NCBI GenBank assembly: GCA_046756385.1
Contig: JBHHWG010000004.1
Location: 5,938-69,937, forward strand
DNA length: 64,000 nucleotides
Origin: Sphingomonadales bacterium
Lineage (GTDB): Bacteria; Pseudomonadota; Alphaproteobacteria; CAZZKF01
Direction: 5' to 3'
Part shown: positions 47,143 to 64,000 of the stretch, piece after piece
How the letters are laid out: the number at the start of each line of letters is the position of its first letter
Position numbering within the stretch: position 1 is the first letter of the stretch
Notes under the pieces: generated by a model
The model's database searches: none
What the model was told of the DNA's origin: nothing
What the model saw: the letters and a program-made list of their open reading frames with translations, nothing else
Position numbers and translations under genes: made by a program

Positions 47143-47371
47143 GACGATTCTGCCCGCTCCCTGTTAGCATGGTCCGCCGACGCCTTGCGCCAACCCATGT
47201 TACCCCCCAACCGGCGCCCGTCGATCAGGTCTTACCCTAACCGACCGCGACGGCATGTGCCAAGACGCCAATATAACCCTAACATTTTTAATACAATAGT
47301 CCATACGGACACCATCAAGTGGTTCCATAAGAGCGGAAAGCGCTTCAACCGCAGGAAATAAAGGAGCGTGA

Positions 47372-47812
47372 TCAGACGACGAATAGCCGTGACCAGTAGT
47401 TTCGCGAGCTTCTGACCAATTCGACGCCTTGTTTTTCAACCAGACGCTCGAGCAGACCCAGCAATTCCACTCGCCCGGGCTGGTAAGCGGCGCCCTCGCA
47501 ATTTTGCAACCGCTTAATGGATCTTGTGAAAAACCAGGCAATATTTTTGAATTTACCGGGCTCGCCATGCGCCAAGGCCTGGCGCAAAAGATCAGCGGCG
47601 AAAGCCACATGGTAATCCGAGACCGACCACGCAAGAGCGGTCAAAATATAGGCCTTGGCTTCTGCCTCTGGAAACGCGCCCTTTTCCAAAAGCGCGCACA
47701 ATTCACAAAGCTCGGCTTTATAACTCGCCCGTGCTTCCTCGGCAAAAGCCTCGACCGCCTTGTCCGCCTCTCGCAAGAAAGTTTTGCGAATTTCGCTCAG
47801 AGCAAGGTCCAT
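47372..47812 (-). CDS. Hypothetical protein (146 aa)
   Basis: Intact ORF with helical, acidic composition. No recognised domain. Confidence 0.35.
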   Translation of the reverse strand: MDLALSEIRKTFLREADKAVEAFAEEARASYKAELCELCALLEKGAFPEAEAKAYILTALAWSVSDYHVAFAADLLRQALAHGEPGKFKNIAWFFTRSIKRLQNCEGAAYQPGRVELLGLLERLVEKQGVELVRSSRNYWSRLFVV

Positions 47813-47827
47813 GCCTTACCTTTTTGA

Positions 47828-48432
47828 TCAGTCACCACGGCGCGGCGTGTCGATTTTGGCCTGCGTCAACTTGCCCCCGCCAGACCGTCGGTCAACGTCA
47901 TGATATGTTGACCTGACCCGCCGCCGATCCGGTCCGGTATAGACATCGAGGGAAATAAATGGCCGCGGTGTGGCAATCGACAGGTACATTTTGTCAAAAA
48001 CACTGGCCGGCGAAATCGGCTTTGTTACGATCTCCGTGATCCCGGCATCGCGCGCGGCGATAATTTGATTCAATTCAGTGTATCCCGTGCCAGGATCACA
48101 GGCACCGCGGGATTGTTCACTTCACCGGACCGACGGATGAAATTCAGCAAGTCCAGAGGCGCGCTTGTCTGCCTGGCCAAATCCATGAACACGCAATCCA
48201 GCTGTGCTTCCGAAACAATTTTCCTGGCCCGCCTGGTCGAATTCGCCTCGGCGATGCTTTGCACATCGAAGGCGCGAATGATTGAAGACAGCAGATTCAG
48301 CATAAAGGCATCCTCGTCACAAATGAGGACGCTCGAATTGACAAACGGCCCCTTTCGCTCACGGAGCCGCGGACCTGGCGGCGCAACGCAAGAGGATGCC
48401 AACCGTAGTGAGAATCTGGGCTTATTTGTCAT
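47828..48432 (-). pseudogene. CheY-like response-regulator receiver domain split by a +1/-1 frameshift
   Basis: ORF 48070..48432 carries the acidic pocket (VLICDED) and the phospho-Asp region (LDCVFMDL). ORF 47828..48073 starts 4 nt upstream of that stop and carries the rest (AARDAGITEIVTKP, conserved Lys). Confidence 0.5.
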
Positions 48433-48582
48433 GCAGGCTCGGTACCTTGTCCAACCCCGCGGCAGAACACCGACTCCGATGCCCCACTACAATACCACAG
48501 TATCTTCGACTAGTCTGTTATTATTATTTATTGGTGAAATTCAAGCCAAGCCGGCATCCGGGATCGCGCCAGGCGCCCGGCC

Positions 48583-50208
48583 CTACCTCTCGGCGTCCGC
48601 TTTCGCCAGTTCCCGAAGTACAAAATGCTGGATTTTGCCGGTCTTGGTGCGCGGCAATTGGTCAATAAACGCAATTGCGCGCGGATATTTATAAGGTGCC
48701 GACGTTTGCTTGGCGAAAGTTTTCAGCTCGCCGACCATGGCTTCGCCGGCAACATAGCCGTCGCGCAACACCACATAAGCCTTGACGACTTGACCCCGGT
48801 CGGGATCGGGCACGCCGACGACGCCGCATTCCGCCACCGCTGGATGCTGCAGCAATGTCTGCTCGACATCCGGCGCGGCGATGTTGTAACCGGCCGAGAT
48901 AATCATGTCGTCGGCACGGGCCTCGTACCAGAAATAGCCATTCTCATCCTTGCGCGCGGCGTCACCGGTGACATTCCAGCCGTCGGCGACATATTTCTTC
49001 TGGCGCTCGTCACCCAGATACAAGCACCCTGTAGGCCCACGCACCGCCAACAGGCCTATCTCGCCGACCGCGGCATCCCCACCCGCTTCATTGATGATCC
49101 GGGCCTCATAGCCGGGAACGGGCTTGCCCAAACAGCCGACCGGGGCGTCGGGCCCATCGACAGACAGAAAAATATGCATCAGTTCAGTCGAACCGATGCC
49201 GTCATAAATCCGCAGGCCGGTTTTTTCCAGCCACGCCTCGGTTGTCGGCTTCGGCAACGCCTCGCCAGCCGAAACGCACATCCGAAGCGATTCCAGGTCC
49301 TGCCCGGAACAGGCAGCCAGCAGGGCGCGATAGGCGGTCGGCGCGGTAAACAGCATGGTGGCTTTGAACCGCCTTATGCTTTCCAGCAAAATCTCGGGCG
49401 ACATTTTATCCAGCAGGACCGTCGCGGCCCGCGCGTGCAGTGGGAAGAACAGAAGCGCGCCAATACCAAACGCAAACGCCAGCGGCGGCGTGCCGATGAA
49501 AACATCCGCCGGCGTCGGTTTGAGCACCTGGCGGGAATATGTTTCACACACCGCAAGCACCGCATGATGGGAATGCAACGCACCCTTGGGCTTGCCCGTG
49601 GTTCCCGATGTGAAGGCGATCAATGCGATATCGTCAGCCGAACCGACCCGGTTTTCGAACGTCTCTGGCTTGTTTGCCGAAAGCGCCTCCAACTGACCGG
49701 AGCCGTTGAAGTAAAGCAGCTTCGTGAGATAGTCGGACGTTGCCGCCGCGGCCTCCATTTCTTCTCCGAGCGCCTCGTCGCACAGAGCAAACTCAGCCTC
49801 TGCGATATCGCCAATGGTTATGAGTTCCTTGGCCCGCAACATCGGCATGGTGGAAACCGCGATCCCGCCAGCCTTGACGACGCCAAACCAACTTGCCGCC
49901 ATCATGGCGTTGTTCGCCCCGCGCAACAATACCCGCCCACCAGGCTTCAGCCCCAGATCGTCGACCAGCACATGGGCGATGCGGTTGGCCTGCGACAACA
50001 GATCAGCGTAAGTCCAGGCCCTTTCAGCGGTGTGAATGGCGATTTTCTGGCCATATCCGTCCTTAACCGCGTCATCGAGCAATACCGCTGCGCAATTGAA
50101 AGGCGCGTCCTCGGTGACCACGTCACGATTTATGAAATCAGGCCACTGATCGACCGGCGGTAAATGCTTGAGAATAAAATCGCCCCGTGGCATTCCTGGC
50201 TCAGCCAT
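48583..50208 (-). CDS. Aryl/acyl-CoA ligase (AMP-binding; benzoate-CoA ligase-like)
   Basis: FTSGTTGKPKG, GSTE, YLGDERQ and the C-terminal LPRTKTGKIQHF motifs. GAGGGAG ribosome-binding site before the ATG at 50208. Confidence 0.8.
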   Translation of the reverse strand: MAEPGMPRGDFILKHLPPVDQWPDFINRDVVTEDAPFNCAAVLLDDAVKDGYGQKIAIHTAERAWTYADLLSQANRIAHVLVDDLGLKPGGRVLLRGANNAMMAASWFGVVKAGGIAVSTMPMLRAKELITIGDIAEAEFALCDEALGEEMEAAAATSDYLTKLLYFNGSGQLEALSANKPETFENRVGSADDIALIAFTSGTTGKPKGALHSHHAVLAVCETYSRQVLKPTPADVFIGTPPLAFAFGIGALLFFPLHARAATVLLDKMSPEILLESIRRFKATMLFTAPTAYRALLAACSGQDLESLRMCVSAGEALPKPTTEAWLEKTGLRIYDGIGSTELMHIFLSVDGPDAPVGCLGKPVPGYEARIINEAGGDAAVGEIGLLAVRGPTGCLYLGDERQKKYVADGWNVTGDAARKDENGYFWYEARADDMIISAGYNIAAPDVEQTLLQHPAVAECGVVGVPDPDRGQVVKAYVVLRDGYVAGEAMVGELKTFAKQTSAPYKYPRAIAFIDQLPRTKTGKIQHFVLRELAKADAER

Positions 50209-50399
50209 CGTTATCACTCCCTCGCGCATGGGCGGTTTGTCCGAAAATTGAAAAATATTTCATGACAGACCAATTTCAGAGATTTCCAGAAGCATAATGC
50301 ATATTTTGCTTGCCGTTGCTAGTTTCCGGTTCAAAGGTGGTCGATTTCAGCTTACGAGTCATATCGCACTTATTTGTTGTATTTTCCGCATTATTATTC

Positions 50400-50475
50400 G
50401 CCATTTGCCGCATTTTCCGCAACATATTGCAATTTTTCGCGATACGCAATATGTTGCACGCGGCGTTTCGGCGTT
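50400..50475. promoter_or_regulatory. Operator-like inverted repeat in the divergent ligase / TonB-receptor intergenic region
   Basis: CGCAACATATTGCAA ... CGCAATATGTTGCAC form an imperfect ~13-bp inverted repeat. Additional ATTTTCCGCA direct repeats lie in a GC-poor segment. Confidence 0.3.
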
Positions 50476-50803
50476 CGAGTACTCAACTCGTAAATAACAT
50501 ATTGTGAATTATGAAGGGGGGGGCGCATCAAAATTTGAATGGCTTCGGGATACACCCGGAGCTTTTGAACGCTCGCTAAATCCGATCCAACAGGCGCTGG
50601 CTTGCCGGATGTACCGAATGATTTCGTTACTGGCGTTCCGGCAAACTTGACATATGTCATGGACGATTTTGTCTTTCTCCTCCTAGCTTACAGCGCCGAA
50701 AGGCTTGGGCAAGCATCTGAAAGATAATGAAATCGCGAAATAAATCCGCGAAACACACAATGCACTGTCAACACTTAGGAGGTTTTCATGAGGAACGAGT
50801 CAA

Positions 50804-53173
50804 ATGAATAGGATTGCTTTGCTTCAATCTTGGCGCAGGCTTAGTGTAAGCTTGTTCGCCCTTTGCGCCTTTACATCACCCGTTCTCGCCGATGAGGCTG
50901 ATGAGGCGGACAGCGCGGCGGCAGCATCTGGTTTTTTTATTGAGGAAATCACGGTTACCTCACGCAAGCGTGAGGAAAACCTCCAGGATACGCCGATTTC
51001 CGTCGCGGCATTTACCGAGAACGATCTTCGCGTGCGGCAGATCGAGGCTTCCGACAAGCTGACGCAAGTCACGCCAAACCTGCAATATTCTTCACAGGCC
51101 CCGTCGTCGGGCAGTAACGCTTCATCACAGATCTTTATTCGCGGTATCGGCCAGACCGAATTTCTGCCCTCCACCGACCCTGGCGTCGGACTGTACATCG
51201 ATGGCGTTTACATGGCGCGCACGGTTGGCGGCACGCTCGATTTCCTCGATCTGGACCGGATCGAAATTCTGCGTGGTCCGCAGGGCACGCTGTTTGGCCG
51301 CAACACCATTGGCGGCGCGATCTCGATTCACTCCAAAAGGCCGGCCAATGAATTCGGTGGCGATGTCGAAGTGACCCTGGGCAAAGACAACCGTCGGGAA
51401 TTCCGCGGCAATGTCGATGTGCCGATCACCGACAATTTCCGGACCAAACTGTCCTTTTCCAAGCGCGATCGCGACGGCTACGTAACCCGCCTCAGCGATG
51501 GTCTGGATCTCGGCGATGACGACACCCTTGGGTTCCGCGTTTCGGCCGTTTGGGAGCCGACCGACAATTTCGACGTTTTCATGGCTTTCGATTATAACAA
51601 AGAAGCCGAGAACGGCGCGCCGCAGGTGTTCAACTCCATCGCGTCCGGCAATCTGTTCGCCCGCGTTTCAAGCGCCCGCGCCGGCTGCCCGGCTCCGGGT
51701 ACCGAGCTTGATGACCCCCGCTGCGCCAACAACCGCTGGCAGGCTGGCCCCTTCGCCACCAACAGCACCTTTCCGCTGATCTCGACGCTCGAAGGGTGGG
51801 GTTTGAACCTGACCCTGAACTGGGATCTCGGCTTTATGAACGTCAAGTCGATCACCGCCTATCGGGACATGGAGTGGCTGGCGTCACGCGATGCGGACAA
51901 CACGCCGTTCGCGATCCTGCATACGCGTAATGACGACACCCAGGAGCAGTTCAGCCAGGAACTCCAGTTTTCCGGCGACGCGCTCGACAGCAAGTTGCAC
52001 TGGCTGGTCGGCCTCTATTATTTCGACGAAACCGCGACCGACGATTATTTCGTCGAGATCACCTTCGGCCAGTTCAATACCGGCGGCGTCGCCAAGGCCG
52101 ACACCAAGGCGGCATTCGCCCAGGCGACCTATGACGTCACCGATGACCTGAGCCTGACCGCCGGGCTGCGCTATACCGACGAGACCAAGGAGTTCCTGCC
52201 GATCCAGTTCGCACTCACGACTTATGTGTTCCCGGTCGGCCCGAGCGAACTCAACGCCGCCGGCGACATGTTCGTCCATCCGGTGACCGGCGAGCTGTTC
52301 CCGCTGATCCCGACCGGCACCGCCGCCATCGTGCCCGCCGGGACCATTTTCTTTGAGCAGGTCAATCACAAGAAGAGCGTCTCTGACGCGACCCCGATGG
52401 CCAGCATCAACTACCGCTGGTCGGACGATGTGATGACCTACTTCACCTATTCGGAAGGCTTCAAAAGCGGGGGCTTCAATGCCCGCAACGTAAAGCCGAA
52501 TCCGGGCGGCCTGCCGGAATTCGAACCGGAAACCGCGAGGACCTATGAACTGGGCGCAAAGACCGACCTGTTCGACGGCAAGCTGCGGCTCAATGGCGCG
52601 GCGTTCCGCACCAGTTACAACAATCTTCAATTCATCGTCCGCGAAGACTTCGCCCCGATCACCTTCAACGCCGGCAAGGCGCGCATCCAGGGGTTTGAAC
52701 TGGAATACACCTGGATTCCGACCCCCGATCTTCAGGTCACCGGCGGCGTCGGCTATATCGATGCCAAATATCAGGAACTCGGCGTCAAGGTCATCACCAA
52801 CGGTGGTGTGGATGAAAGCAACGCCCTGCCACACACACCCGAATGGTCGCTCAATATGGGTGCCGCCTATAACTTTTATCTTGGCGAGCTGGGCACCCTG
52901 ACGCCGCGGCTCGACTGGTCTTATCACTCCAAGATGTTCTTCAACGCCGAAAATACCGAAGCCATCGCACAAGACGGGTACCACCTGTTGAACGCAGCGT
53001 TCATTTACGACTCGCCCGATTCCAACTGGCAGGTCGTGTTTGCGATCGAAAACCTGACGGACAAACTCTACCGGCTGTCGGGCAATTCCTCGCTCAGGGC
53101 CAGCGCGTCCTACGCTGAATCGACTTATGCCCGGCCACGTCAATGGTCGGTAAAGACCAAGTTCACGTTCTAA
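50804..53173 (+). CDS. TonB-dependent outer-membrane receptor (second copy)
   Basis: Signal peptide, plug domain (ITVTSRKREENLQDTPISVAAF) and a barrel ending in a C-terminal Phe (TKFTF). Followed by a hairpin at 53187-53218. Confidence 0.85.
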   Translation: MNRIALLQSWRRLSVSLFALCAFTSPVLADEADEADSAAAASGFFIEEITVTSRKREENLQDTPISVAAFTENDLRVRQIEASDKLTQVTPNLQYSSQAPSSGSNASSQIFIRGIGQTEFLPSTDPGVGLYIDGVYMARTVGGTLDFLDLDRIEILRGPQGTLFGRNTIGGAISIHSKRPANEFGGDVEVTLGKDNRREFRGNVDVPITDNFRTKLSFSKRDRDGYVTRLSDGLDLGDDDTLGFRVSAVWEPTDNFDVFMAFDYNKEAENGAPQVFNSIASGNLFARVSSARAGCPAPGTELDDPRCANNRWQAGPFATNSTFPLISTLEGWGLNLTLNWDLGFMNVKSITAYRDMEWLASRDADNTPFAILHTRNDDTQEQFSQELQFSGDALDSKLHWLVGLYYFDETATDDYFVEITFGQFNTGGVAKADTKAAFAQATYDVTDDLSLTAGLRYTDETKEFLPIQFALTTYVFPVGPSELNAAGDMFVHPVTGELFPLIPTGTAAIVPAGTIFFEQVNHKKSVSDATPMASINYRWSDDVMTYFTYSEGFKSGGFNARNVKPNPGGLPEFEPETARTYELGAKTDLFDGKLRLNGAAFRTSYNNLQFIVREDFAPITFNAGKARIQGFELEYTWIPTPDLQVTGGVGYIDAKYQELGVKVITNGGVDESNALPHTPEWSLNMGAAYNFYLGELGTLTPRLDWSYHSKMFFNAENTEAIAQDGYHLLNAAFIYDSPDSNWQVVFAIENLTDKLYRLSGNSSLRASASYAESTYARPRQWSVKTKFTF

Positions 53174-53277
53174 CGTAAGCCTCAGGGGAGCGGTTCCGGG
53201 AGACGGAACCCTCCCTTAATCCCACGAATTTTGCCCCGCCCTACACGGCTGTAGGGCGACGGGTGGTGTGATCTCGC

Positions 53278-53317
53278 TGGGATATCCGGGGATATGACGG
53301 GATATCATGGGACAAGC
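53278..53317. repeat. Three tandem 10-bp GGGATATNNN repeats (plus a degenerate fourth) near the presumed prophage left end
   Basis: GGGATATCCG GGGATATGAC GGGATATCAT GGGACAAGCG. GTGTGAT motifs also occur at 53266, 53388 and 53415. Confidence 0.5.
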
Positions 53318-53412
53318 GCCCGGTTTTCAACGGTTTGGGGTGTGTCGGGGCGATTGTTGGGTGGTGGCGGAGGGCGGCGTGTGATTTGATCCCGCGGCAC
53401 GCTCTGCGACGG

Positions 53413-53898
53413 TTAGTGTGATCCGGTTTGACGCCTGACGATGGCATCGTAAGTGGCGCCATTCGATATCAATTTCATTTTCAGAAGCGCCATTCTGGCA
53501 TCGGAGAGCAAATGGTTGTCGAGAGCGACTTCCTCTAGCTCGCCCTCTCGGCTTACCTCGCAGCGTATATGTCCTCGCGTCAACGCGCCAAATGCGTTCT
53601 GATAGTCGAAATCTATGTATGCGATCAAAGGATGAGACATCTGTTCTGCTATCTCTTCGTCGGTCTGTTCTGAGTATTTAGCAAACATTTCAGCAGTCCA
53701 TTCTGAGAAGTCGAATTCATCAATCTTCAAGGGCTGAACTGTCGTTGGTGTGGTCACGAGTGCGCGAACTGTCTCAATGCACAGTTCTGTAAATGGGCTG
53801 TGCGTCGGTTCCACAAGTTGTTCGCAGCCAGCGAGCGCCACGGCCGCGAGCGCCATTACGCTGTAGCGTCTTGTTCTTACTGGTGTTTTCTGTGACAT
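53413..53898 (-). CDS. Hypothetical lipoprotein (prophage-end moron?)
   Basis: Lipobox MALAAVALAGC. Markedly lower GC than the flanking sequence. Confidence 0.45.
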   Translation of the reverse strand: MSQKTPVRTRRYSVMALAAVALAGCEQLVEPTHSPFTELCIETVRALVTTPTTVQPLKIDEFDFSEWTAEMFAKYSEQTDEEIAEQMSHPLIAYIDFDYQNAFGALTRGHIRCEVSREGELEEVALDNHLLSDARMALLKMKLISNGATYDAIVRRQTGSH

Positions 53899-53912
53899 AT
53901 CTCTTCTTTCTC

Positions 53913-54581
53913 TTATAGCACCAGGCGCGCGGCCCAGCGGACGCGGCCGATGACCTGAAGCTCGTCCAGACGTTCATTTGGAAAGGTCCATGGCGGATAG
54001 GCCGAGTTGTCTGAGATAATTCGCACGCCATCGTGAGTTCTGCGAATGCGCTTAACATAGGCAACATCGCCCTCGACGAAGGCATAAATGCCGTCTCGCA
54101 ATCCCCGATCGGATTGGTCGATCAGTAGTAGATTGCCGTCGTGGACGGTTGGCTCCATGGAATCTCCCTTGGCCTTCAATATCGCCAATTCCTTGGCGTT
54201 TGAGTGTCCCAGATCGCGAAGAAAGCTCAAAGGGAAAGGTACGCGACCAACCGCATGCGCCCGGTCGTTGAATGAACCATCACCCGCAGACAACTGGATG
54301 TCGTAGATTGGCAGCAAGACGAAGTCGCCGCCTGCGGCCTCTGTCGGCTCGTCGGGCCGCATGGGACCTTCACCGGCCACCAGCCACCCGATTGAGACGC
54401 CCGCCGCCCTCGCCATGGCCAGAAGGCGGTCTCGCGAGGGCTCGGACTCTCCCGCTTTGTATTTATCGATGACGCGCCTCGACAGGTTGGACAAACGTGC
54501 AAGGGCCGATGCCCCTCCCACCAAATCGGTCAGAATAATTATGCGCTCATGGAACGATTGCGCCCGGTAAGTGTTCATCAT
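53913..54581 (-). CDS. Phage repressor, CI/LexA-like (HTH + peptidase S24)
   Basis: C-terminal S24 autopeptidase with the Ser motif KGDSMEP and Lys (VAYVKRIRR). N-terminal DNA-binding region. The start was chosen at MMNTY. Confidence 0.8.
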   Translation of the reverse strand: MMNTYRAQSFHERIIILTDLVGGASALARLSNLSRRVIDKYKAGESEPSRDRLLAMARAAGVSIGWLVAGEGPMRPDEPTEAAGGDFVLLPIYDIQLSAGDGSFNDRAHAVGRVPFPLSFLRDLGHSNAKELAILKAKGDSMEPTVHDGNLLLIDQSDRGLRDGIYAFVEGDVAYVKRIRRTHDGVRIISDNSAYPPWTFPNERLDELQVIGRVRWAARLVL

Positions 54582-54822
54582 CCTAACCCTAACCCACTGC
54601 GCAGTGTTCGGGTTTCCGGCCAGAGTTCGGCGTAACCCCCTGATAGCGCGCATATTTTTCCTGCACCATCGGCCAAGGCAGGCCGCCGGAACGCTGAAGG
54701 AACCCTTACCGCACATTCGTGCTTGAATTTACGGAATAAACGTGCCATGTTTCTTTCCATTGCAGTTTTAAACACCCGACAAAAGCCGACCTGGCGGGGC
54801 CGGCTGTTAAGCGAGGAGACGC

Positions 54823-55125
54823 ATGCGACGCACCAAGAATATGCCGCCGGAGGAGATCCTTTATCTACTGAACCGCAAGGGCGGCTGGACCTACGCCGAG
54901 GTGGACCGGATCTACGGCCTAAAAAGTGGCATTGCCCGCTGGGCGGCACGCTGCCCCCACCTCCAGGGCGAACTGGCCATCGCCGAAGTGCTTGGCATGT
55001 CCCCCCGGCAAATCTGGCCCGGCCGCTTCGACAGTGCGACCGGCAAACGCCTTCGTCCTCAACCTGCCGCGCATTATAGGCCAGCGCCCCGCCTTCGTCT
55101 CCGTAAAAAAAACACGGAGGGTTGA
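54823..55125 (+). CDS. Ner-like DNA-binding protein (Mu Ner/Nlp family)
   Basis: ILYLLNRKGGWTYAEV...LAIAEVLGMSPRQIWPGRF matches the Ner/Nlp family HTH. Divergent from the repressor, as in Mu. Confidence 0.7.
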   Translation: MRRTKNMPPEEILYLLNRKGGWTYAEVDRIYGLKSGIARWAARCPHLQGELAIAEVLGMSPRQIWPGRFDSATGKRLRPQPAAHYRPAPRLRLRKKNTEG

Positions 55126-55324
55126 ACATGCCTGGTTGTAAAGCGAGTATGCGCAACCTCTCAGCGATTGTTGCGATTTTGATCATCCGCTTCGTCTTTT
55201 CCGCCGTGGTCGTCTGGCCCCCCAACCATAGAGAAAAAGCCCCGGCCGCCCCCTTGCTCCCCAACTCGCCGGCGGGCTCGCCACTTGCCCGCCGGCCTCT
55301 TTTTTTGGCGTGGAAGGCTGTGTG

Positions 55325-55786
55325 ATGACGCGGCGCGACACCAAAACCCTCGACCTGTTTACCGACTATCGGCCGCCCGAGCCGGCGGTGCGGTTCGCGC
55401 CCGAGGTGGTGCGCGGCGCGGACATCGAAACCCGCCTGTGCCGGGCCATGCGCGTGGCGCTCAAGGGTTGCAGACTGGCCCGCGAAGAGGTGGCTGAGCG
55501 AATGAGCGCATTTCTCGGTCGCGAGTTCAGCAAGAACATGCTCGATGCCTATGTTTCGGAAGCGCGCGCCGGCCACGTGATCAACATCGTCAAATTCGCC
55601 GCACTGATCCACGCCACCGAAGATTACCGGCTGCTGTCGGTGCTGGTTGAGGAGTTCGGCTTCATCGTCGTCGACTGTCGTTACGAGAAGCTGATTCAGG
55701 CGACAATGGGCAAGGAGCGCCTGGCCAGGGCCCGGCAGGAAATCGCCCGGCTGGAGCGCGAAGCGCATCGGGGGCTGGGGATATGA
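55325..55786 (+). CDS. Hypothetical Mu-like early protein
   Basis: Intact ORF between ner and the transposase gene, overlapping the transposase start. Confidence 0.45.
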   Translation: MTRRDTKTLDLFTDYRPPEPAVRFAPEVVRGADIETRLCRAMRVALKGCRLAREEVAERMSAFLGREFSKNMLDAYVSEARAGHVINIVKFAALIHATEDYRLLSVLVEEFGFIVVDCRYEKLIQATMGKERLARARQEIARLEREAHRGLGI

Positions 55787-57927
55787 GCCGGGAATATTAC
55801 AGCGCCGCCGATCTGGCGCAGATGAAGCTGCCGGGCATGCCTGAAACCGAGGGTGGCTGCATCCGCCGCGCCAAGCGCGAGAACTGGCGGGGCCGACAGC
55901 GCCAGGGTCGTGGCGGCGGACGTGAATACCATATTTCCAGTCTGCCGCCCCAGGCGCGCATCGAGCTGGCGCGCCGGGCGTCGATTTCCGAAGCCCAGGC
56001 CGGCCAGGCGGCGGCGCGGGCGATTTTGGCGGCCCAGCGGCCCGACGTCACGCTTTGCAAGGACCAGCCGCCGGCCAAATACCGGACGCTGGCCGAGGCC
56101 CGCGAGACCGTGCTGTTCGCCTTCAAGCAATTTCATCGGACGTCGGGGTTAAGCCAACGTCACGCTCTCGCAGTATTTGTCGATGACTTCAAGGGCGGCC
56201 GGATCGCGCTCGACGACGGAGCCTGCGACCATGTGACCGCGCTTTCAGCCCCGACCTTGAAGCGCTGGATGCGCGCCTATAGGCAGCGCGGCCTGGCTGG
56301 CCTGGCGCCGGGCTGGGGCGGGCGCAAGGGCGACACCAAGATCGACCGTGACGAAGACCTTAAATCCTTCTGTATCGGCGTGCTGGTCGAACATCCTCAC
56401 GCGTCATCGGTGCAGGTCATGGAGGGTCTTCAGGTCCGCTTCCCCGACAAGGACCTGCCGGACCTGCGCAACCTGCAACGCTGGCTCAAGCGCTGGAAGG
56501 CTGAGAACCGCCGGGGCTTCATCGCGGTCACCAACCCGGATCAATATAAAAACGAGTTTAAACCGGCGTTTGGCAGCTTTTCAGAAAATCTCACACGGCC
56601 CAATCAGGCTTGGGAACTCGACAGCTCGCCCGCCGACGCCATGACCACGGAAGGCAAGCGCCAGGCGCTGGTGGCGGTGGTCGACGTCTTCACCCGCCGC
56701 AGCATGACCGTGGTCGCGCCCACCTCGTCGGCGGCCGCGATCGCACTGTTGTTGCGTCGTGCGATCGAGGTTTGGGGCGTGCCGGAGCGGGTCAAGATCG
56801 ACAACGGTCGCGACTATGTGTCCAGGCACATCACGCGCATCTTTGATCAGCTCGGTATCGAGATTGACGTCTGTCCGCCATTCACACCCGAACACAAGCC
56901 CCACGTGGAGAGGTTCTTCCAGACCTTGCAGCACAAATTCATCGAGCTGCTGCCGGGCTATGTCGGCCATTCGGTGGTCGATCGCAAGGCGATCGAGGGG
57001 CGCCGGGCGTTCGAGCAGCGCCTGGGCGACGAGGCCCCGGCCTTCAATGTCGAGCTGTCGGCCGAGGAGTTGCAGCGGATGATCACAAGCTGGTGCGACG
57101 ATAGCTACCAGCACCGTCCGCACCGCGGACTCAAGGGCAAGAGCCCGTTCCAGGTCGCCGCCGCCCATGCCGGGGCCATCCGCCGGATCACCGACAAGGA
57201 GGCGCTCGAAGTTCTGATGGCCAAGGCGCCCGTTGATGGCGGCATGCGCACGATCACAAAATCCGGCATTCATTTCGATAATACAGTCTATATCCATCCT
57301 GCGCTGGCCGCCCATGTCGGCGAGCAGGTGCAGATCCTGCTCAACGAGGCCGAGGCCAGCGAGATCTATGTTTACGTCCAGGACGGGCCGTTCCTATGTT
57401 TGGCGATTGCGCCCGAATTGCGCGGGATTTCAAGGCGCCAGATGGCGGCTGCCGCCAAAAAGATCGAAGCCGAGGCCCAGGCCGAGGAAAGAAAGGCCCT
57501 GCGCAAGGCCCGGCGCAAGGCCGACAGCAAATATATCGCCCAGGAGGCGCTCAAGGACCAGGCCGAGGCCGCCGGCAAACTCGCACGCCTGGAGCCCAGG
57601 GCCGAGGATCACAGCACCCCGGCTCTGGAACAGGCCGGCCATGCCGCCCGCGCCGGCGAATTCAAGCCCGCCGAACAAACGCCGCAGCTAAACGCGGCCA
57701 TGGAGCGGCTGGAAGACAGCATGGCGTCGGCTGAAGTCGCCAAGCTGGAGCCGACGCCACAGGACCGCTGGGCGCGGGCCAAGGGCATCGAGGCGGCGAT
57801 CGACGCCAAAGAGCCCGTGTGTCAGGAGGAGGCAGCCTGGCACACATTTTACACACGCTCTGCCGAATACAAATCGCTCAAGCGTTTTTACTGCGATTTC
57901 AAACCATCAATTGTACAGGGAGAATAA
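55783..57927 (+). CDS. Mu-type DDE transposase (MuA-like)
   Basis: 714 aa. N-terminal HTH / end-binding region. The central integrase-core (rve) region includes the residues DNGRDY. C-terminal Mu-transposase domain. Confidence 0.85.
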   Translation: MSREYYSAADLAQMKLPGMPETEGGCIRRAKRENWRGRQRQGRGGGREYHISSLPPQARIELARRASISEAQAGQAAARAILAAQRPDVTLCKDQPPAKYRTLAEARETVLFAFKQFHRTSGLSQRHALAVFVDDFKGGRIALDDGACDHVTALSAPTLKRWMRAYRQRGLAGLAPGWGGRKGDTKIDRDEDLKSFCIGVLVEHPHASSVQVMEGLQVRFPDKDLPDLRNLQRWLKRWKAENRRGFIAVTNPDQYKNEFKPAFGSFSENLTRPNQAWELDSSPADAMTTEGKRQALVAVVDVFTRRSMTVVAPTSSAAAIALLLRRAIEVWGVPERVKIDNGRDYVSRHITRIFDQLGIEIDVCPPFTPEHKPHVERFFQTLQHKFIELLPGYVGHSVVDRKAIEGRRAFEQRLGDEAPAFNVELSAEELQRMITSWCDDSYQHRPHRGLKGKSPFQVAAAHAGAIRRITDKEALEVLMAKAPVDGGMRTITKSGIHFDNTVYIHPALAAHVGEQVQILLNEAEASEIYVYVQDGPFLCLAIAPELRGISRRQMAAAAKKIEAEAQAEERKALRKARRKADSKYIAQEALKDQAEAAGKLARLEPRAEDHSTPALEQAGHAARAGEFKPAEQTPQLNAAMERLEDSMASAEVAKLEPTPQDRWARAKGIEAAIDAKEPVCQEEAAWHTFYTRSAEYKSLKRFYCDFKPSIVQGE

Positions 57928-57930
57928 CTC

Positions 57931-58653
57931 ATGAAACACGCACCACTCTCCAACATGGCGCTGTGCCTGAACCTGATCGAGGAGCTGCAGAACCTGCCGT
58001 CTTACCTGCCAAGGATGGGCGGATTCTTTGGCAAAAGCGGCATCGGCAAGACTGTGGCCGCCGGTTACGCATCAGGCCAGTCCGACGCAATCTTCATTCG
58101 CGCAACCTCGACCATCAATCAGAAATGGTTTCTTAAGCAACTGCTGATCGAGGTCGGGGTGCCGAAACCCAAAGGCACGCTCGCGGAACTGACCACACTG
58201 CTCAACAACCGGTTGCTGGAGAGCCGCCGACCACTAATCATCGATGAGGCCGACTACATCATCAAAAAGAGCTTTATCGATCTGATCCGCGACCTGCACG
58301 ACGGATCGGAAGTCCCGATCCTGCTTATCGGAGAAGAATATCTGTCCGACCATCTTGAAATGTGGGAGCGGTTCCATAACCGCATGAAGTTCGTGCCCGC
58401 GAGCCTGCCGACAAGCACTGATATCCTCACCTTGCGCGATTTCTATCAGCGCGACGGCGTTCATATCGCCGACGATCTGGCCCTGTTCTTCGCCGACCAG
58501 GTCGACGGCTCGATCCGCCGTCTGGCCATGAACCTGCATGAAGCGACGGAGCGGTCCTTGCGGGAAGGCTGGGATACCGTTGATCGCGGCAAGTGGGGCG
58601 GCGCCCCGGTCATGACCGGCAAGGTCGACCACACCCGAAGGCTGGCGGCCTGA
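57931..58653 (+). CDS. MuB-like AAA+ transposition ATPase
   Basis: Walker A GKSGIGKT and Walker B LIIDEAD. Positioned immediately after the transposase gene. Confidence 0.8.
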   Translation: MKHAPLSNMALCLNLIEELQNLPSYLPRMGGFFGKSGIGKTVAAGYASGQSDAIFIRATSTINQKWFLKQLLIEVGVPKPKGTLAELTTLLNNRLLESRRPLIIDEADYIIKKSFIDLIRDLHDGSEVPILLIGEEYLSDHLEMWERFHNRMKFVPASLPTSTDILTLRDFYQRDGVHIADDLALFFADQVDGSIRRLAMNLHEATERSLREGWDTVDRGKWGGAPVMTGKVDHTRRLAA

Positions 58654-58654
58654 C

Positions 58655-59281
58655 ATGGCGGGGATTTCCAAACATGTAACCGCCACGGTACCGGGACCCC
58701 ACGGCCGTGAGGCGATCTGGGGCGCGGTGCGCGCATTGAGTGAGAATTTCACAGCCGATGATGTCTATTTCAAGATCAACCGGGGTCGCGGCAAGCTGGA
58801 CACGTCAACCGAGACAGTCAAAGACTACCTGACCCGGCTCGTAAAGGCCGGGGTCATCGAGAAGGTCGGTGAGCGCAGCCGTCGCGGTCAATTTCAGAAC
58901 CGCATTTACCGGCTTGTGAACGACCTCGGTCCCGATGCGCCGCGCGTGCGCAAGGATGGCAGTTTCTCCAAGGCGCTCGGCACCACCCGGATGTGGCGCG
59001 CCATGAAAGTGATGGTTCGCTTTACCGCCGCAGATGTCGCTTTCACCGCTCAGGTCAAGGTTGAAACGGCAAAGACATATTGCCGTCATTTGAAGGCGGC
59101 GGGTTATTTGCGAGTGCTAAAGCCCGGCACTCGCAAGGGACTAACAGTCTTCCGCCTTGACGCCGCCCACTATCGCGGCCCGGCGGCGCCCAAAATCACG
59201 CGGCTGAAGGGCGTCTACGACCCCAATATCGACGAGGTCGTCTGGATCGGCCACGCTGTGGCGCGGGAGGACGCGGCATGA
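58655..59281 (+). CDS. Hypothetical Mu-like phage protein
   Basis: Intact coupled ORF (208 aa). Confidence 0.45.
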   Translation: MAGISKHVTATVPGPHGREAIWGAVRALSENFTADDVYFKINRGRGKLDTSTETVKDYLTRLVKAGVIEKVGERSRRGQFQNRIYRLVNDLGPDAPRVRKDGSFSKALGTTRMWRAMKVMVRFTAADVAFTAQVKVETAKTYCRHLKAAGYLRVLKPGTRKGLTVFRLDAAHYRGPAAPKITRLKGVYDPNIDEVVWIGHAVAREDAA

Positions 59282-59658
59282 GCGCAGTCAGGCCGATCGA
59301 TCATCTGCAAAAGGCTCGCGCGGCTTGGAGCGAGGCTCTGCCCGACTGGATCGACGCACTCGCCCGCGCGGCCAATGAAAAGGGTCTCAGGGGCGCCTCG
59401 CGGGCCACTGGCGTCAGCAAGGCCGCGATCAGCCAGGTGCTGGCCAATAAATACGGCGCCCGGCTCGACCGGCTGGAGCGCGTCGTGCGTCTCACTCTGC
59501 TGCCCGGCGAGGTCGACTGCCCGGCGTTGGCCACGACGATCGCCACGCCCCAATGCCTGGCGCACCAGCGGCGAGGCACTTCGAGCTTGAATCCGATCCA
59601 TGTGCGGCTCAGCCGCACCTGTCCAACCTGCAACCATAATGAGAGGAACACGTTATGA
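59278..59658 (+). CDS. Hypothetical phage DNA-binding protein with Cys4 motif
   Basis: HTH-like region GLRGASRATGVSKAAISQVL. CPAL...C...CPTC cysteine pairs. Confidence 0.45.
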   Translation: MSAVRPIDHLQKARAAWSEALPDWIDALARAANEKGLRGASRATGVSKAAISQVLANKYGARLDRLERVVRLTLLPGEVDCPALATTIATPQCLAHQRRGTSSLNPIHVRLSRTCPTCNHNERNTL

Positions 59659-59942
59659 TACATCATGACATTAGCCATCTGGCCGCTCATGTCGCTATGC
59701 GCACCAGCGCTCGGCAAGGGCTCAGTCGGGCGGAGGCCGCGGCTTTGCAGCGCAACCTGGTCGACCTTGCGCTACGGGTTCAACTGTTGGAGGCACATGG
59801 CGCACCGGCCGAGCCGTGGAGCGAATTCGTCGCCTTCCCGCCGCCCCAGGCGCCGATGTTGGACCTCGCGCCGACCGGCCGGATCGAGCGGTTCAAGCTG
59901 CTTTTAAAGCGCCTCGGCTCCTCGTTTCAAACCGCATCATAG
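59655..59942 (+). CDS. Hypothetical phage protein
   Basis: Coupled small ORF. Confidence 0.35.
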   Translation: MIHHDISHLAAHVAMRTSARQGLSRAEAAALQRNLVDLALRVQLLEAHGAPAEPWSEFVAFPPPQAPMLDLAPTGRIERFKLLLKRLGSSFQTAS

Positions 59943-59951
59943 GAAGACGCC

Positions 59952-60512
59952 ATGCCCGCAAAACGCCACCGCAAACCAGCAATCGATGTTCCAGAGACCG
60001 TGGAGACTGCACGCAAACTGATCGCGCGCTTGGGCGAGGTCACTCGACGCAAGGGTGAACTCAACGACATGATCGAGCGCAGTGTTCAGGACTTCCGGGA
60101 ACGCCTGGAATGCCCGCTAAGGCCGGACATTTTGGCCCTGACGAGCGAGGCCGAGGCGATCGGCCGGCGTCTGGAGGCCTTCCTGATCGCCAACCGCGCC
60201 GACTTGCTCAAGGGCAAGGCCAAGTCGGTCAAATGGCCCGAAGGCCAGATCGGCTTTCGCACCGGGCAACTGACCGCCCTGTTCGACAAAGCCGACGAGC
60301 CGCTGATCATCGAACGGCTGGAGGCTGCGGCCCTGACCGACTGCATCGCGGTCATCAGGAGAATCGACAAGAAGACGTTGGCCAGAAACTACGACCGGAT
60401 TCCCGAGGGCACGCCGGTCCGCGTTGGCCGCACCGAGCGCTTTTTCGCCGCCCCCACAGCCCATGACGGCGCCGATGAGGAAGTAAATGAAACAGGAGAC
60501 ACACATGCCTAA
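59952..60512 (+). CDS. Host-nuclease inhibitor Gam-family protein
   Basis: 186 aa. Coiled-coil N-terminus, with size and sequence character of Mu Gam. Position in the Mu early region. Confidence 0.7.
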   Translation: MPAKRHRKPAIDVPETVETARKLIARLGEVTRRKGELNDMIERSVQDFRERLECPLRPDILALTSEAEAIGRRLEAFLIANRADLLKGKAKSVKWPEGQIGFRTGQLTALFDKADEPLIIERLEAAALTDCIAVIRRIDKKTLARNYDRIPEGTPVRVGRTERFFAAPTAHDGADEEVNETGDTHA

Positions 60513-60912
60513 GCAACTCATTGAACACGACAACATCGTCGACGCGGCAGCCGCCGTGCTCGTGGGCCGCAAGACCATAGACTATCACTTCAGAAAAGAC
60601 GTGATCGAGCGACTGCGCGAAGCCATGGACCAGTCGTCTACTGCGATCTTTCGCGAGATCGCGGTGACCTACCGAGATATATTGGCCGACACCGCGGCCT
60701 GCAGTGAGGATTCTGAAGGCTGGTTCTCGCACGCACAAGTCGATCTTGGGTTCGTTGCGCTGACGCTCCGCGACCGGCCTGAGGCGGCGCGGGCCTGCCT
60801 GATCGGCGCCGCAGCTGAGATCCTGATCGCTATCGAGATGCTGGATCGAGAACAGCGCGCGGCCAAACAGGCCGCGCACCTGGCGGCGCTGGGAGGCGCG
60901 GTCCATGGCTGA
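60505..60912 (+). CDS. Hypothetical phage protein
   Basis: Coupled ORF. Confidence 0.4.
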   Translation: MPKQLIEHDNIVDAAAAVLVGRKTIDYHFRKDVIERLREAMDQSSTAIFREIAVTYRDILADTAACSEDSEGWFSHAQVDLGFVALTLRDRPEAARACLIGAAAEILIAIEMLDREQRAAKQAAHLAALGGAVHG

Positions 60913-61279
60913 GCGCAAACGCCTGCCCGACCGGCGCCCGTCTGTCAATTCCAAGGCCTGGCTCAGAAATGATCAGGACGAGGAAACTCATAAGCTGCAT
61001 ATTTCGGTTCACTTTGACGCGGCGACCGGGCGACCGGGCCAGGTCGACTTCGACGCCGGTAAAGCCGGCACCGAAATTCAGGCGGCACTACATGAATTTG
61101 CGGCAGTAGTATCGATCGCGCTGCAACACGACGCGACCATGGATGATCTTCTCAAGGCGGTGACGCACGGCGATAAAAACGGCCGGCCGGTGTTCCTGGG
61201 CCTGCCGGCCAAGGCCCTGGCCGAAGCGCATCTGTTGGCCAGTGATACAAACGGCGGGTTGACAGGGACATTTGAGTAG
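60905..61279 (+). CDS. Hypothetical phage protein
   Basis: Coupled ORF. Confidence 0.4.
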   Translation: MAERKRLPDRRPSVNSKAWLRNDQDEETHKLHISVHFDAATGRPGQVDFDAGKAGTEIQAALHEFAAVVSIALQHDATMDDLLKAVTHGDKNGRPVFLGLPAKALAEAHLLASDTNGGLTGTFE

Positions 61280-61331
61280 GTGCGATCATGACATACAAAA
61301 TCGACGTCCAAAACCAGCGAGGCGTGACAGC

Positions 61332-62042
61332 ATGACCATCACACAGCGCCGCAGATCGCTTTATGGAAAGATCGAGATCGCCAAGAAGCAGCTTGGTCTC
61401 GACGACGAGACCTACCGGACGATCCTTCGGGAAAAGTTTGGGGCGACAAGCCGCACCACGCTGCGCGAGCGCGAGCTCGTGGACCTGATCGAACATTTCA
61501 AGGATCGGGGTTTCAAGCCCAGGCGCAAGCCGATGCGGGCGGGAAACCGGGCGCTGGCCGGCGGTGCGCCGCAGGGCAAAATCAGGGCGCTGTGGCTTGA
61601 CCTTTATCATCTCGGCCTGGTCCGCAACCCGTCGGAAGACGCGCTGACGCAATTCGTCAAGCGCCAGACGGGCGCGGACGCCCTGCAATTTCTGACCGGA
61701 GCCAGCGCCGGCCGGGTGATCGAGGCGCTCAAGGACTGGGCGGCGCGCGACGCGGGCGTTAGCTGGGCCGGCTATCGGACGATCGATGGAGCCGGCTTTA
61801 CCGTCCACAAGCCCAAGGGCCGGGTCATGGAGGCGCAATGGCGCATTCTTCACGATCTGGGTGAAGTCAGAATTCGCTCGACCGATGCCCTGTCGGCTTG
61901 GGTCGAGCGGTATCTGAGGTTGCCCGGCAAGAGAAGTCACCGGGATATCAGCCAACAACAGGCCGACCGGGTGATCGAGCATCTCGGCGCCTGGGTTCGA
62001 CGCGCCAGGGCGAACGGCGAGGTCCCAAATGAGCAAGCGTAA
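61332..62042 (+). CDS. Phage regulatory protein GemA-like
   Basis: RRRSLYGKIEIAKKQLGLDDETYRTIL...TSRTTLRERELVDLIEHFK matches the GemA family N-terminus. Confidence 0.65.
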   Translation: MTITQRRRSLYGKIEIAKKQLGLDDETYRTILREKFGATSRTTLRERELVDLIEHFKDRGFKPRRKPMRAGNRALAGGAPQGKIRALWLDLYHLGLVRNPSEDALTQFVKRQTGADALQFLTGASAGRVIEALKDWAARDAGVSWAGYRTIDGAGFTVHKPKGRVMEAQWRILHDLGEVRIRSTDALSAWVERYLRLPGKRSHRDISQQQADRVIEHLGAWVRRARANGEVPNEQA

Positions 62043-62283
62043 GGCCAGGCAAATTCGCTCAGACATCGTGCTGGCGCTCGCGCCCGAAGCTCGTCTTCAA
62101 AACGAGACTTACAGCGCCCTGGGCTTCAGTTTAAAGCCCATGGCTCGGGTGACGTTTCGCTGTGGCATTGCGGTGAGGTTGACCTGGCGTCGCCGTCACG
62201 ACGGCGAGTGCAGCGAGATCCGGCTGACGATAACGACCGATACCGCCGAGACCACCAAAACCATTCTGCAAGAGGCGGGCTGA
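62029..62283 (+). CDS. Hypothetical phage protein
   Basis: Coupled small ORF. Confidence 0.3.
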   Translation: MSKRKARQIRSDIVLALAPEARLQNETYSALGFSLKPMARVTFRCGIAVRLTWRRRHDGECSEIRLTITTDTAETTKTILQEAG

Positions 62284-62534
62284 TGACCGGTGCCGCAAGA
62301 GTCAAGAGTTTGACCGAGGATGCGCTGGAGGTCGGCCTGGCGCATCTGGAGTGGGCTCATTCTGTTGGACAAACCAACTCTGAAATACTCGCGTCACTGG
62401 ACGAAGCCGCGGCCCCTCGCCCAACCGACTTCCATGTCGTCGGACGGATCGCGCTTTGGTATCTGCGCACTTTCTGGATCGTGCAGGACGCCCCGCGCGG
62501 CCGGCCGACGCCGACGCTGGATGCGGTTCTGTGA
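62283..62534 (+). CDS. Hypothetical phage protein
   Basis: Coupled small ORF. The start was chosen at the ATG after the previous stop. Confidence 0.3.
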   Translation: MTGAARVKSLTEDALEVGLAHLEWAHSVGQTNSEILASLDEAAAPRPTDFHVVGRIALWYLRTFWIVQDAPRGRPTPTLDAVL

Positions 62535-62926
62535 GCGTGTCCTACGAGGATCTGCCCGAGCTGGCCCGCGACATGGCCGATCGCCTGGGCCTGGAGGCGA
62601 CGCTGGCGCTTGTTCTTGTGTTTGGAGGCACCTATCTCAGGGTGCCCAAGCGCGCCAATCCCGACGGCGCGATCGCGGCCGCCGTCGGGATCGATGCGGC
62701 TTCAAGACTGAGCCATCATTTTGGCGGCGAGCGTCTGGAAATGCCGCGTGCCGCTGCCGCTCTTACCCGGCACGAGCGCGCCTCGATTTTGGCTCAGGTG
62801 TCTGCCGGCGCGATCACTGTGGGCGGCGCGGCGCGGCAATTGAACTTGACAACCCGCTGGGTTCGCGAGCTTGTTAACAGGCCCCGCCGCGACGATCGCC
62901 AGCAAGACATGTTCGAAAGCCCATAG
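62531..62926 (+). CDS. Mor-family transcriptional activator (middle operon regulator)
   Basis: About 131 aa. LALVLVFGGTYLRVPK and a C-terminal HTH (GAITVGGAARQLNLTTRWVRELV) are typical of Mor/C-family late activators. Confidence 0.6.
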   Translation: MSVSYEDLPELARDMADRLGLEATLALVLVFGGTYLRVPKRANPDGAIAAAVGIDAASRLSHHFGGERLEMPRAAAALTRHERASILAQVSAGAITVGGAARQLNLTTRWVRELVNRPRRDDRQQDMFESP

Positions 62927-62992
62927 GCGAAAGCCCATAGGCGGAAGCCCTTCCGCCCCATCCAAACCGGTCATGGCCGCTACAACTGCGTC

Positions 62993-63472
62993 ATGACACA
63001 AAACACCCCAGAATATTATTTTCCCATGCTGATCGAGATCGATCTGCCACGGGATCGTGCGACCGAGGGCGTGTTGCGCCTTGTTGACGGCAACGACGCG
63101 ACCATGATGTCGGCGCGCTGTCGGGGCAAGGCCGACAGCCGACGCGCTGCGAATGAAGACAACCCTGACCGCGATCCAACGCGACCTTTCGGCGACACCC
63201 CGTCGGGCTTGTATCGCGAGACCGGCGTCCACTGGTTTCCGAAAGAAGCCAACAGCAGGTTGGGTCCGGCGTGGATTCCACTGATCGGCCTCTCGGGCGA
63301 CGCCGAGCGCGCCCACCGCAACGGCCGCACCGGCCTCGGTATCCATGGCGGACGCGGCGATGAGCGTCTGGTGGCCACATATGGCTGCGTGCGCCTGCTT
63401 GATTGTGATTTCGTGCATCTGGCCACCATCATCGCCAACCGGCCGGTCGGCGTGATCATCAGGGACATTTGA
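62993..63472 (+). CDS. L,D-transpeptidase catalytic domain protein (probable phage endolysin-type)
   Basis: YkuD motif: LGIHGG...TYGCVRL has the catalytic His and Cys. Followed by a holin-like gene. Confidence 0.6.
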   Translation: MTQNTPEYYFPMLIEIDLPRDRATEGVLRLVDGNDATMMSARCRGKADSRRAANEDNPDRDPTRPFGDTPSGLYRETGVHWFPKEANSRLGPAWIPLIGLSGDAERAHRNGRTGLGIHGGRGDERLVATYGCVRLLDCDFVHLATIIANRPVGVIIRDI

Positions 63473-63479
63473 GGCCGTC

Positions 63480-63707
63480 ATGAACGACAGAAAATCGGTT
63501 CTTCGCTCTCGGACATTCTGGGGCGCGGTGGTGGCGATCGCCGCCTCGCTGCTACAGGGCTTCGACATCACAATCGGCGCGGCCGAACAGGCGGCGCTGG
63601 TCAATCTGATCGTAACCGTCGCCGGCTGCGCCGGTGGGCTGGTGGCGATCTACGGGCGCGTCAAAGCCAGGACGCGCATTTCGACAAAAAAGAAGGAGGC
63701 ACCATGA
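63480..63707 (+). CDS. Small membrane protein, holin-like
   Basis: 75 aa with two predicted TM helices and a charged C-terminus. Coupled (ATGA) to the next gene. Confidence 0.4.
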   Translation: MNDRKSVLRSRTFWGAVVAIAASLLQGFDITIGAAEQAALVNLIVTVAGCAGGLVAIYGRVKARTRISTKKKEAP

Positions 63708-64000
63708 ATGTGATTGCCAGAACGTTTCTGGCGCTGGCGGTAGTTACGCTTGGCGCCTGCGCCTTGACCGGCGCGCCGGTCGACACCCCGGCCAAGAAGC
63801 TGGCGGCGGCAAAGACCGGCTACACGGCGGTTCTAAACGCCGCGACCCAGGCCGCCAAAACCGGCCTGTTGTCTGACCGCGCGGTCATCAAGATCGAGGC
63901 GTCGCGCATCGCCGCGCGGGCTGCGATCGATACCGCCGAGCGCTATCTCGGCGATAGGCCAGACAACGCCTTCGCATACATCGACCAGGCTTTGACGCTG
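63704..64000 (+). CDS. Lipoprotein, possible spanin; 3' end lies outside the window
   Basis: Lipobox LAVVTLGAC. The 3' end is truncated by the window edge. Confidence 0.4.
   Translation, partial: MNVIARTFLALAVVTLGACALTGAPVDTPAKKLAAAKTGYTAVLNAATQAAKTGLLSDRAVIKIEASRIAARAAIDTAERYLGDRPDNAFAYIDQALTL

Follow-up and report, generated by a model that had tools for sequence, protein, structure and literature searches.

Where does the Mu-like prophage in this Sphingomonadales genome begin, and which sequences at its tip might its own proteins recognize? The question is raised by a 64-kb stretch of a metagenome-assembled genome (contig JBHHWG010000004.1), referred to here as the window, in which an earlier note had proposed a Mu-type element starting directly after a TonB-dependent receptor gene, at 53174. 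From 53250 to beyond 64000, the sequence appears to come from a transposable prophage of the Mu type and to make up its left arm, with an attL at about 53250–53427 that holds three MuA-type sites, and we assign this reading a probability of about 90%. Roughly 10.7 kb of the element, presumably its left third, lies in the window, and another ~1.9 kb can be followed on an overlapping contig (L113) of an independent assembly (Logan sample SRR29324595). The insertion point is 76 bp 3′ of the receptor gene (50804–53173; Plug and TonB_dep_Rec_b-barrel, E = 5e-49), which is the left neighbor of the prophage on the host side. The intervening stretch, 53174–53249, is host DNA and includes the terminator-like hairpin of the receptor gene; a start at 53174 is therefore not retained. 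Genes and sites lie on the plus strand unless stated otherwise.

We place the left tip, to the base, at 53250, where the element opens with 5′-TG (53250–53251; TGTAGGGCGACGG...). This placement, made by sequence comparison, is strongly supported. In an alignment of ten related left ends, the 20 nt upstream are unrelated to one another, and the invariant columns begin with T21-G22-T23, corresponding to 53250–53252. Combined with a regular-expression search, the alignment gives an invariant T-G-T...G-A-C.G from window position 53250 onward. The tip of the closest relative (L022), TGTACCGCGACAGATGGTTTGAT, aligns with TGTAGGGCGACGGGTGGTGTGAT at 53250; in this relative, a 17-nt sequence is repeated directly three times at spacings of 137 and 31 bp, and TGTAC precedes the first copy. 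A pattern search of 80 IMG/VR relatives located the L022-type terminal signature in at least nine other loci. Sequenced phages show comparable ends: RcapMu, for which attL1, attR1 and attR2 are annotated, starts with TGTAGGGGG, and RS1 carries TGTA..CGAC.G at both ends in inverted orientation. Both genomes begin with TGTAG. As regards 5′-TG...CA-3′ termini, the left TG at 53250 is backed by homology and by an assembly fork described below, and the right terminus lies beyond the available sequence. The expectation that attL would be found within about 250 bp after the receptor gene was thus correct. The five bases preceding the mapped terminus, ACGGC (53245–53249), are the predicted left copy of a 5-bp target-site duplication. 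They fit the target preference of Mu, which we take to be N-Y-S-R-N.

The same base is indicated by the independent assembly. Logan contigs are built at k = 31 with singleton k-mers dropped, contigs of 150 bp or less are unreported, and each 31-mer is unique (10.1101/2024.07.30.605881). The contig carrying the host side (L003) ends at 53279, which is 53249 + 30, and the contig carrying the phage side (L001) starts at 53273, 30 nt before 53303, so that the two overlap by 7 nt. Given k = 31 and the omission of short nodes, these ends point to forks at 53249|53250 and 53302|53303, with an unreported 53-nt node between them. The homology comparison had predicted the very base at which the left fork is found, and the contig breaks therefore strongly support the terminus. 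From the break offsets, the 53-nt segment itself (TGTAGGGCGACGGGTGGTGTGATCTCGCTGGGATATCCGGGGATATGACGGGA, 53250–53302) would occur a second time in the sample. The simplest reading, for which the support is moderate, is that the second copy forms a perfect 53-bp terminal inverted repeat at the right end of the prophage. A Mu-type element would then be predicted to have an inverted right terminus, TGTAGGGCGAC..., with a CA-3′ end, and a junction reading ...TCCCGTCATATCCCCGGATATCCCAGCGAGATCACACCACCCGTCGCCCTACA-3′ followed by ACGGC. Since the contig of the closest relative runs through its own junction, a perfect repeat would be a feature of this phage and not of the group.

It is quite possible, nonetheless, that the breaks at 53279 and 53273 have a cause other than an inverted repeat, namely another related element, insertion at several sites within the population or accidental gaps in coverage; of the alternatives considered here, this one survives best. 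Ordinary coverage gaps do occur in these Logan assemblies, for example one of 110 nt between L001 and L113 (61616–61725, within gemA), and they weigh against the repeat: contig breaks need not mark repeats, and it is the exact k-1 offsets that carry the fork argument. Coverage of the sample is thin, with true gaps, the L022 contig spans its own junction, which shows that long perfect inverted repeats are not general, and the terminal repeats of RS1 and RcapMu are imperfect only. On the other hand, both breaks are found at exact k-1 offsets around the 53-nt block, and the left edge of this block is the independently mapped terminus. Several insertion sites alone would not yield the inner fork at 53302|53303, and a pure gap would require at least two reads ending at 53279 together with at least two starting at 53273.

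The Mu-type character of the element is evident from its genes. The earlier note had described a complete Mu-type early region, and Pfam searches bear this out, with a leftward HTH and S24 repressor, Ner, MuA, MuB, Gam, GemA and Mor. The repressor (53913–54653/54716, minus strand; a gene call of 246 aa) is of the CI/LexA type and carries HTH_3 and Peptidase_S24 domains (E = 4e-21). It has no similarity to Mu c, and its homologues are equally placed in many relatives. It is followed by a Ner-like early regulator (54823–55125; HTH_35, E = 2.5e-12) and by an early transcriptional regulator that is weakly CII-like (55325–55786, in an open reading frame (ORF) from 55310; phrog_2345, E = 1.6e-36; Phage_CP76 under the Pfam cutoff). 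PHROGs assigned strong phage regulator families at 55310–55786 and 58655–59281. The MuA-type DDE transposase (55783–57927, 714 aa) contains HTH_Tnp_Mu_1 (PF02316, the Mu N-terminal DNA-binding domain), rve (PF00665, the core) and Mu-transpos_C (PF09299, the Mu C-terminal domain), each above cutoff. A MuB-type AAA+ target-capture ATPase lies directly 3′ of it (57931–58653; AAA_22, E = 5e-14, and TniB). Farther along are Gam, a DNA-end-protection protein (59952–60512; PF07352, E = 3e-14), GemA (61272–62042; PF06252, E = 2.6e-45) and Mor, the middle-operon activator (62456/62531–62926; PF08765, E = 8e-10). On contig L113, which overlaps the end of the window, the series continues with DUF2730 (Mu gp25-like), Phage_Mu_Gp27 and the start of an ORF that occupies the large-terminase position. 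The early and middle genes stand in Mu order (repressor, Ner, Gam, GemA, Mor), with lysis and head genes after them, in agreement with the annotated Mu genome.

These genes suggest how the prophage would operate. The repressor, with its self-cleaving S24 domain, would hold the rightward early operon (ner, the regulators, A, B, gam, gemA and mor) off, and since it is of the CI/LexA type with an S24 domain, induction by DNA damage is plausible. Once induced, the element would undergo replicative transposition carried out by MuA and MuB, and Mor would next switch on the later genes, including those of a YkuD-type lysin and a holin. A scan of 53000–55400 for sigma-70 promoters and terminators gave nothing that exceeded shuffled controls, and repeats located between the repressor gene and ner provided no information. 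An additional ORF of the early region (60905–61279) encodes a TSCPD domain (E = 4e-5) and is without homologue in the related prophage loci. Elsewhere, this domain is known at the C-terminal end of B12-dependent ribonucleotide reductases.

Whether this left arm belongs to a working phage has to be weighed separately. The right end, the 5-bp duplication and a second insertion site all lie outside the sequence in view, so that transposition itself is something we infer. Completeness and inducibility can likewise only be presumed, since the window ends about 10.7 kb into the element, and MuA binding at all three end sites described below is a prediction. These points weigh against the Mu-type reading as a whole. 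Searches beyond the window were negative within their scope: the MuA peptides had no match in species-representative genomes, and an exact search with the terminal 23-mer returned 0 matches in IMG/VR and the JGI metagenomes. A degenerate L1 pattern matched once per contig on IMG/VR contigs and recovered no right end of a relative. In the species-representative genomes, the best match of the TonB receptor was 39% identical (Kordiimonas) and lacked synteny, which makes an empty-site comparison impossible. In Logan, MuA is carried by only two short contigs and the predicted lipoprotein gene described below by only one.

A defective or partly deleted prophage, with an intact left arm that has lost transposition or particle formation, is on balance unlikely. 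Only the ~10.7 kb in the window and the ~1.9 kb from L113 are visible, the contig of the metagenome-assembled genome is at most 71.8 kb long, and hence the assembly breaks inside the element; no second insertion site was observed. Against such decay, all early genes examined are full length and carry their family domains, the end sites are intact, the late genes come in the expected order, and the forks at both edges of 53250–53302 suggest a matching second end in the sample. The phage may still be active.

Within attL, the best candidates for MuA-binding sites are three 25-nt direct repeats. The earlier note had pointed to three GTGTGAT motifs as possible transposase sites. These are found at 53266, 53379 and 53416, and their number alone is not significant (8 copies of the 7-mer in the window vs 5 expected); however, they turn out to be the cores of 25-nt direct repeats at 53253, 53371 and 53403 (repeat family D1), so that the suggestion holds in this extended form. 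The L1-like repeat (53253–53277) aligns with the L1 of the relatives. The L2-like repeat (53371–53395) is 80% identical to it and starts 118 bp after it. The L3-like repeat (53403–53427) starts 32 bp after L2, matches L1 in 15 of the 18 nt of the core and overlaps the 3′ end of the lipoprotein ORF. Two extra matches to the L1 core of this quality (15/18 and 14/18) occurred in 0/20000 random window pieces and in 2/20000 self-tests. In the relatives, the first site has an offset of about +6, the second one of about +121 to +148 and the third one of about +153 to +181. For Mu we assume offsets of about +6, +111 and +151, that is, a spacing of ~105/40 bp. Because the 118/32 bp spacing resembles that of Mu L1-L2-L3 and the arrangement recurs in the relatives, the 25-nt repeats are the best candidates for MuA binding and are likely MuA sites, as judged from sequence and layout. 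MuA would bind L1 at 53253, L2 at 53371 and L3 at 53403, and the long L1-L2 spacer would bend, bringing the three bound protomers together as in Mu.

The spacer that separates L1 from L2 holds a second conserved element, four GGGA units in a 10-bp phase (53279–53312). GGGATAT occurs at 53279, 53289 and 53299, and the fourth unit, GGGACAA, starts at 53309. This is the only chain of at least three GGGA at 9–11 bp spacing on either strand of the window; the number expected under a Markov model is 0.1. Related loci totalling 1.06 Mb contain 11 chains of at least four GGGA, all 11 on the MuA strand just after a TGT terminus and 0 on the other strand, and the array is kept in relatives even where the L1 sequence differs. 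A strict pattern scan of IMG/VR returned at least 120 loci, some of them simple tandem repeats and roughly 25 of them Mu-like left ends. Among the 80 matches listed (L115–L194), no contig name recurs, and two matches were present only in L156 and L177, neither of which looks Mu-like. The Mu sequence itself has an imperfect equivalent, with GGA at 34, 44, 54 and 64.

One IMG/VR relative (L064, at 900–1900) carries two near-identical left-end modules, TGTGATCTGACAC...GGTTTGAAACCACCC and then four phased GGGA. The modules are 915 bp apart, in like orientation, and lie ~8 kb upstream of the MuA gene of L064; they could represent a duplicated end or two nested elements.

What the GGGA array does is a matter of graded likelihood. 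The earlier note had recorded three phased GGGATAT repeats as candidate transposase-binding sites. Their presence is confirmed, with coordinates from 53279 onward and a fourth unit added, but the proposed role is unlikely, as the array is a spacer element that is conserved apart from L1. Direct binding of MuA to GGGATAT is rather improbable: although the repeats are located in attL and adjoin L1, they have nothing in common with the 25-nt L1/L2/L3 repeat, their 10-bp phasing is kept in relatives with a different L1, and in Mu the equivalent stretch falls between the mapped sites, within the spacer. The array is more likely to serve packaging or bending than to be a MuA site, and of these two roles we favor packaging recognition, with bending as the alternative. 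The array may be the packaging start (pac), recognized by the gp27-like terminase partner. Mu pac presumably lies at about bp 32–58; the literature on Mu places pac at the left end in general terms and includes a 1985 paper by Groenen and van de Putte. Two observations weaken the packaging idea: RS1 has a gp27-like protein without a GGGA chain, and an association between the array and a gp27-type partner is blurred by the many loci without one or both features. Alternatively, the array may help to bend the spacer; the L1-L2 spacer of Mu is bound and bent by HU (PMC3145075). Tentatively, and at somewhat less than even odds, we propose that the four (C)GGGA(Y) units are a conserved, sequence-specific recognition element of a broad Mu-like lineage, most likely a left-end pac read by a gp27-type partner or, alternatively, a docking array for an unrecognized end-binding factor.

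The junction with the host contains a hairpin that the earlier note had listed among the candidate transposase sites, at 53238–53257. The hairpin exists, with slightly shifted stems of 9 bp (53237–53245 and 53250–53258). The left arm belongs to the host and the right arm consists of the first 9 phage nt, so that the structure is a chimera of the host/phage junction and not a good candidate for a transposase site. The end of the host flank, CGCCCTACA, is the exact reverse complement of the first 9 phage nt. Inverted matches of at least 9 nt were obtained at 0.36% of random window positions. The hairpin is probably due to chance; that the match between CGCCCTACA and the phage tip reflects target choice is less likely. 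As a conserved phage element the hairpin was rejected, with 0/10 relatives having one. Further out within 53210–53258, the reverse complement of the flank, GGGATTAAGGGAGGG, shows a faint echo of the phage GGGA array. The terminator-like hairpin of the host after the receptor gene (53184–53217), predicted by RNA folding and without a U-tract, is a separate structure; the terminator scan made no call there.

A left end elsewhere, either at 53174 after the receptor gene or at one of the TG dinucleotides at 53264, 53267, 53269 and 53278, is very improbable. Several TG dinucleotides are indeed close by, and contig L001 begins at 53273, but in the relatives alignment starts with TGT(A/G) at 53250, the L1 core is fixed at +6 and the upstream sequence is dissimilar, and contig L003 stops exactly 30 nt beyond 53249. 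An integrase-type site-specific prophage, as which the element would have been flanked by corresponding att sites, or a non-phage transposon of the Tn7/Tn552 type can be dismissed: the DDE/AAA+ gene pair is also found in such transposons, but no integrase-family domain was matched in the scanned prophage ORFs, no tRNA gene in 45000–64000 and no att core were found, and the Gam, GemA, Mor, lysis, gp25-like and gp27-like genes contradict both.

Downstream of mor lies a candidate lysis cassette. The earlier note had proposed an L,D-transpeptidase with a holin, and this is plausible from the sequence comparisons. The first gene (62993–63472, also called from 63026), in the endolysin position, encodes a putative YkuD-family L,D-TRANSPEPTIDASE. 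The protein itself matches PF03734 below threshold (E = 0.017; 16.2 bits vs the 23.4-bit Pfam cutoff), PF03734 is present in 20 of its 28 homologues, and in the motif HGG...THGCVRL the residues H118, C132 and R134 are invariant (26 sequences). No sequence match was obtained in the PDB. In a relative (L023) the same position is taken by a GH108 endolysin, directly followed by a homologue of the holin-like protein encoded next in the window. This small membrane protein (63480–63707) has weak matches to PHROG holins (~1e-3). The family of the YkuD protein is small and is found mostly on short metagenomic contigs. PhaLP lists YkuD domains for 10 phage lytic proteins (PMC8310338), which makes this lysin type rare but known.

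Between the left end and the repressor, inside the element, is a low-GC gene for a predicted lipoprotein (53413–53898, minus strand). By inspection, its N-terminus, MSQKTPVRTRRYSVMALAAVALAGC, has a basic N-region, a hydrophobic core and an L-A-G-C lipobox. The GC content of the gene is 0.49–0.51 vs 0.60–0.68 in the early operon. The protein matches no family in Pfam, PHROGs, NCBIfam or PADLOC, and the related loci are all without a homologue. That the gene is a moron, as the earlier note had suggested, is plausible, given its low GC content, its position inside the element and its absence from the relatives. On the host side of the prophage, an AT-richer stretch of ~570 bp (50230–50803; GC 0.45–0.47 vs ~0.6 around it) between the divergent genes for an AMP-binding enzyme and the TonB receptor is probably their shared regulatory region.

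In comparison with Mu (NC_000929), the prophage has the same gene order (repressor, ner, A, B, gam, gemA, mor, lysis, gp25, gp27) and the same set of MuA domains. It also shares the 5′-TGTA terminus, an L1 near the tip, a long spacer with L2 and L3 close together, and 10-bp-phased GGA/GGGA in the spacer; the sites are 118/32 bp apart in the prophage, as against about 105/40 bp in Mu. In contrast, the sequences of the sites are unrelated, and the significant part of a BLASTP alignment of Mu A with this MuA is limited to 62 N-terminal residues (40% identity, E = 9e-10). The repressor is of the CI/LexA type with HTH and S24 and is not Mu c-like, the lipoprotein gene stands between attL and the repressor, and the putative lysin would be of the YkuD fold.

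The closest relatives belong to uncultured Alphaproteobacteria and to Rhodospirillum sp. A1_3_36 (L022, L023), together with IMG/VR loci L031, L032, L044, L054, L067 and L095. Their MuA is 36–43% identical in the best tblastn segment (40–42% for the top database matches). They share the terminal consensus TGT(A/G)..GCGAC.G.TGG, the three-site layout, the phased GGGA directly after L1, and an S24-type repressor and Ner in matching places. The site core differs, being ...GTGTGATC here and ...GATGGTTTGA in the relatives. The related loci compared are without the lipoprotein and several small ORFs of this prophage; a YkuD counterpart is present in L085, whereas L023 has the GH108 endolysin in place of the YkuD protein. 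Among 5.8 billion proteins, the nearest relative of MuA is 42% identical, and among sequenced phages the best matches are RS1 and RC1 at 31%. With no relative closer than about 42% in MuA, the prophage represents a distinct lineage.

RcapMu (NC_016165) and RS1 (JF974307) are likewise alphaproteobacterial transposable phages with TGTAG termini, inverted terminal transposase sites and leftward genes between attL and the repressor. Their MuA proteins are more distant, at 19% identity (RcapMu, BLASTP) and 31% (RS1, tblastn), and neither phage has a phased GGGA array. In RcapMu, a DUF1804 protein and not a gp27-type protein precedes the terminase.

The element is of an ordinary kind, but it is a distant Mu-like prophage from a host group in which few transposable phages have been described. 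Its left end could be placed to the base in an uncultured genome by two independent lines, the onset of alignment among related ends and the k-1 offsets of de Bruijn breaks. The candidate lysin of the rare YkuD type offers a small lead for work on lysins, and the low-GC lipoprotein next to attL a small lead for work on lysogenic conversion. The end layout of Mu, with L1, a long GGGA-phased spacer, L2 and L3, persists in phages with transposases that can barely be aligned with Mu A. For the whole group, the GGGA array provides a concrete and mutable candidate for a packaging or bending signal. If the packaging assignment is true, the array would define the left-end pac site at the sequence level, a definition long sought.

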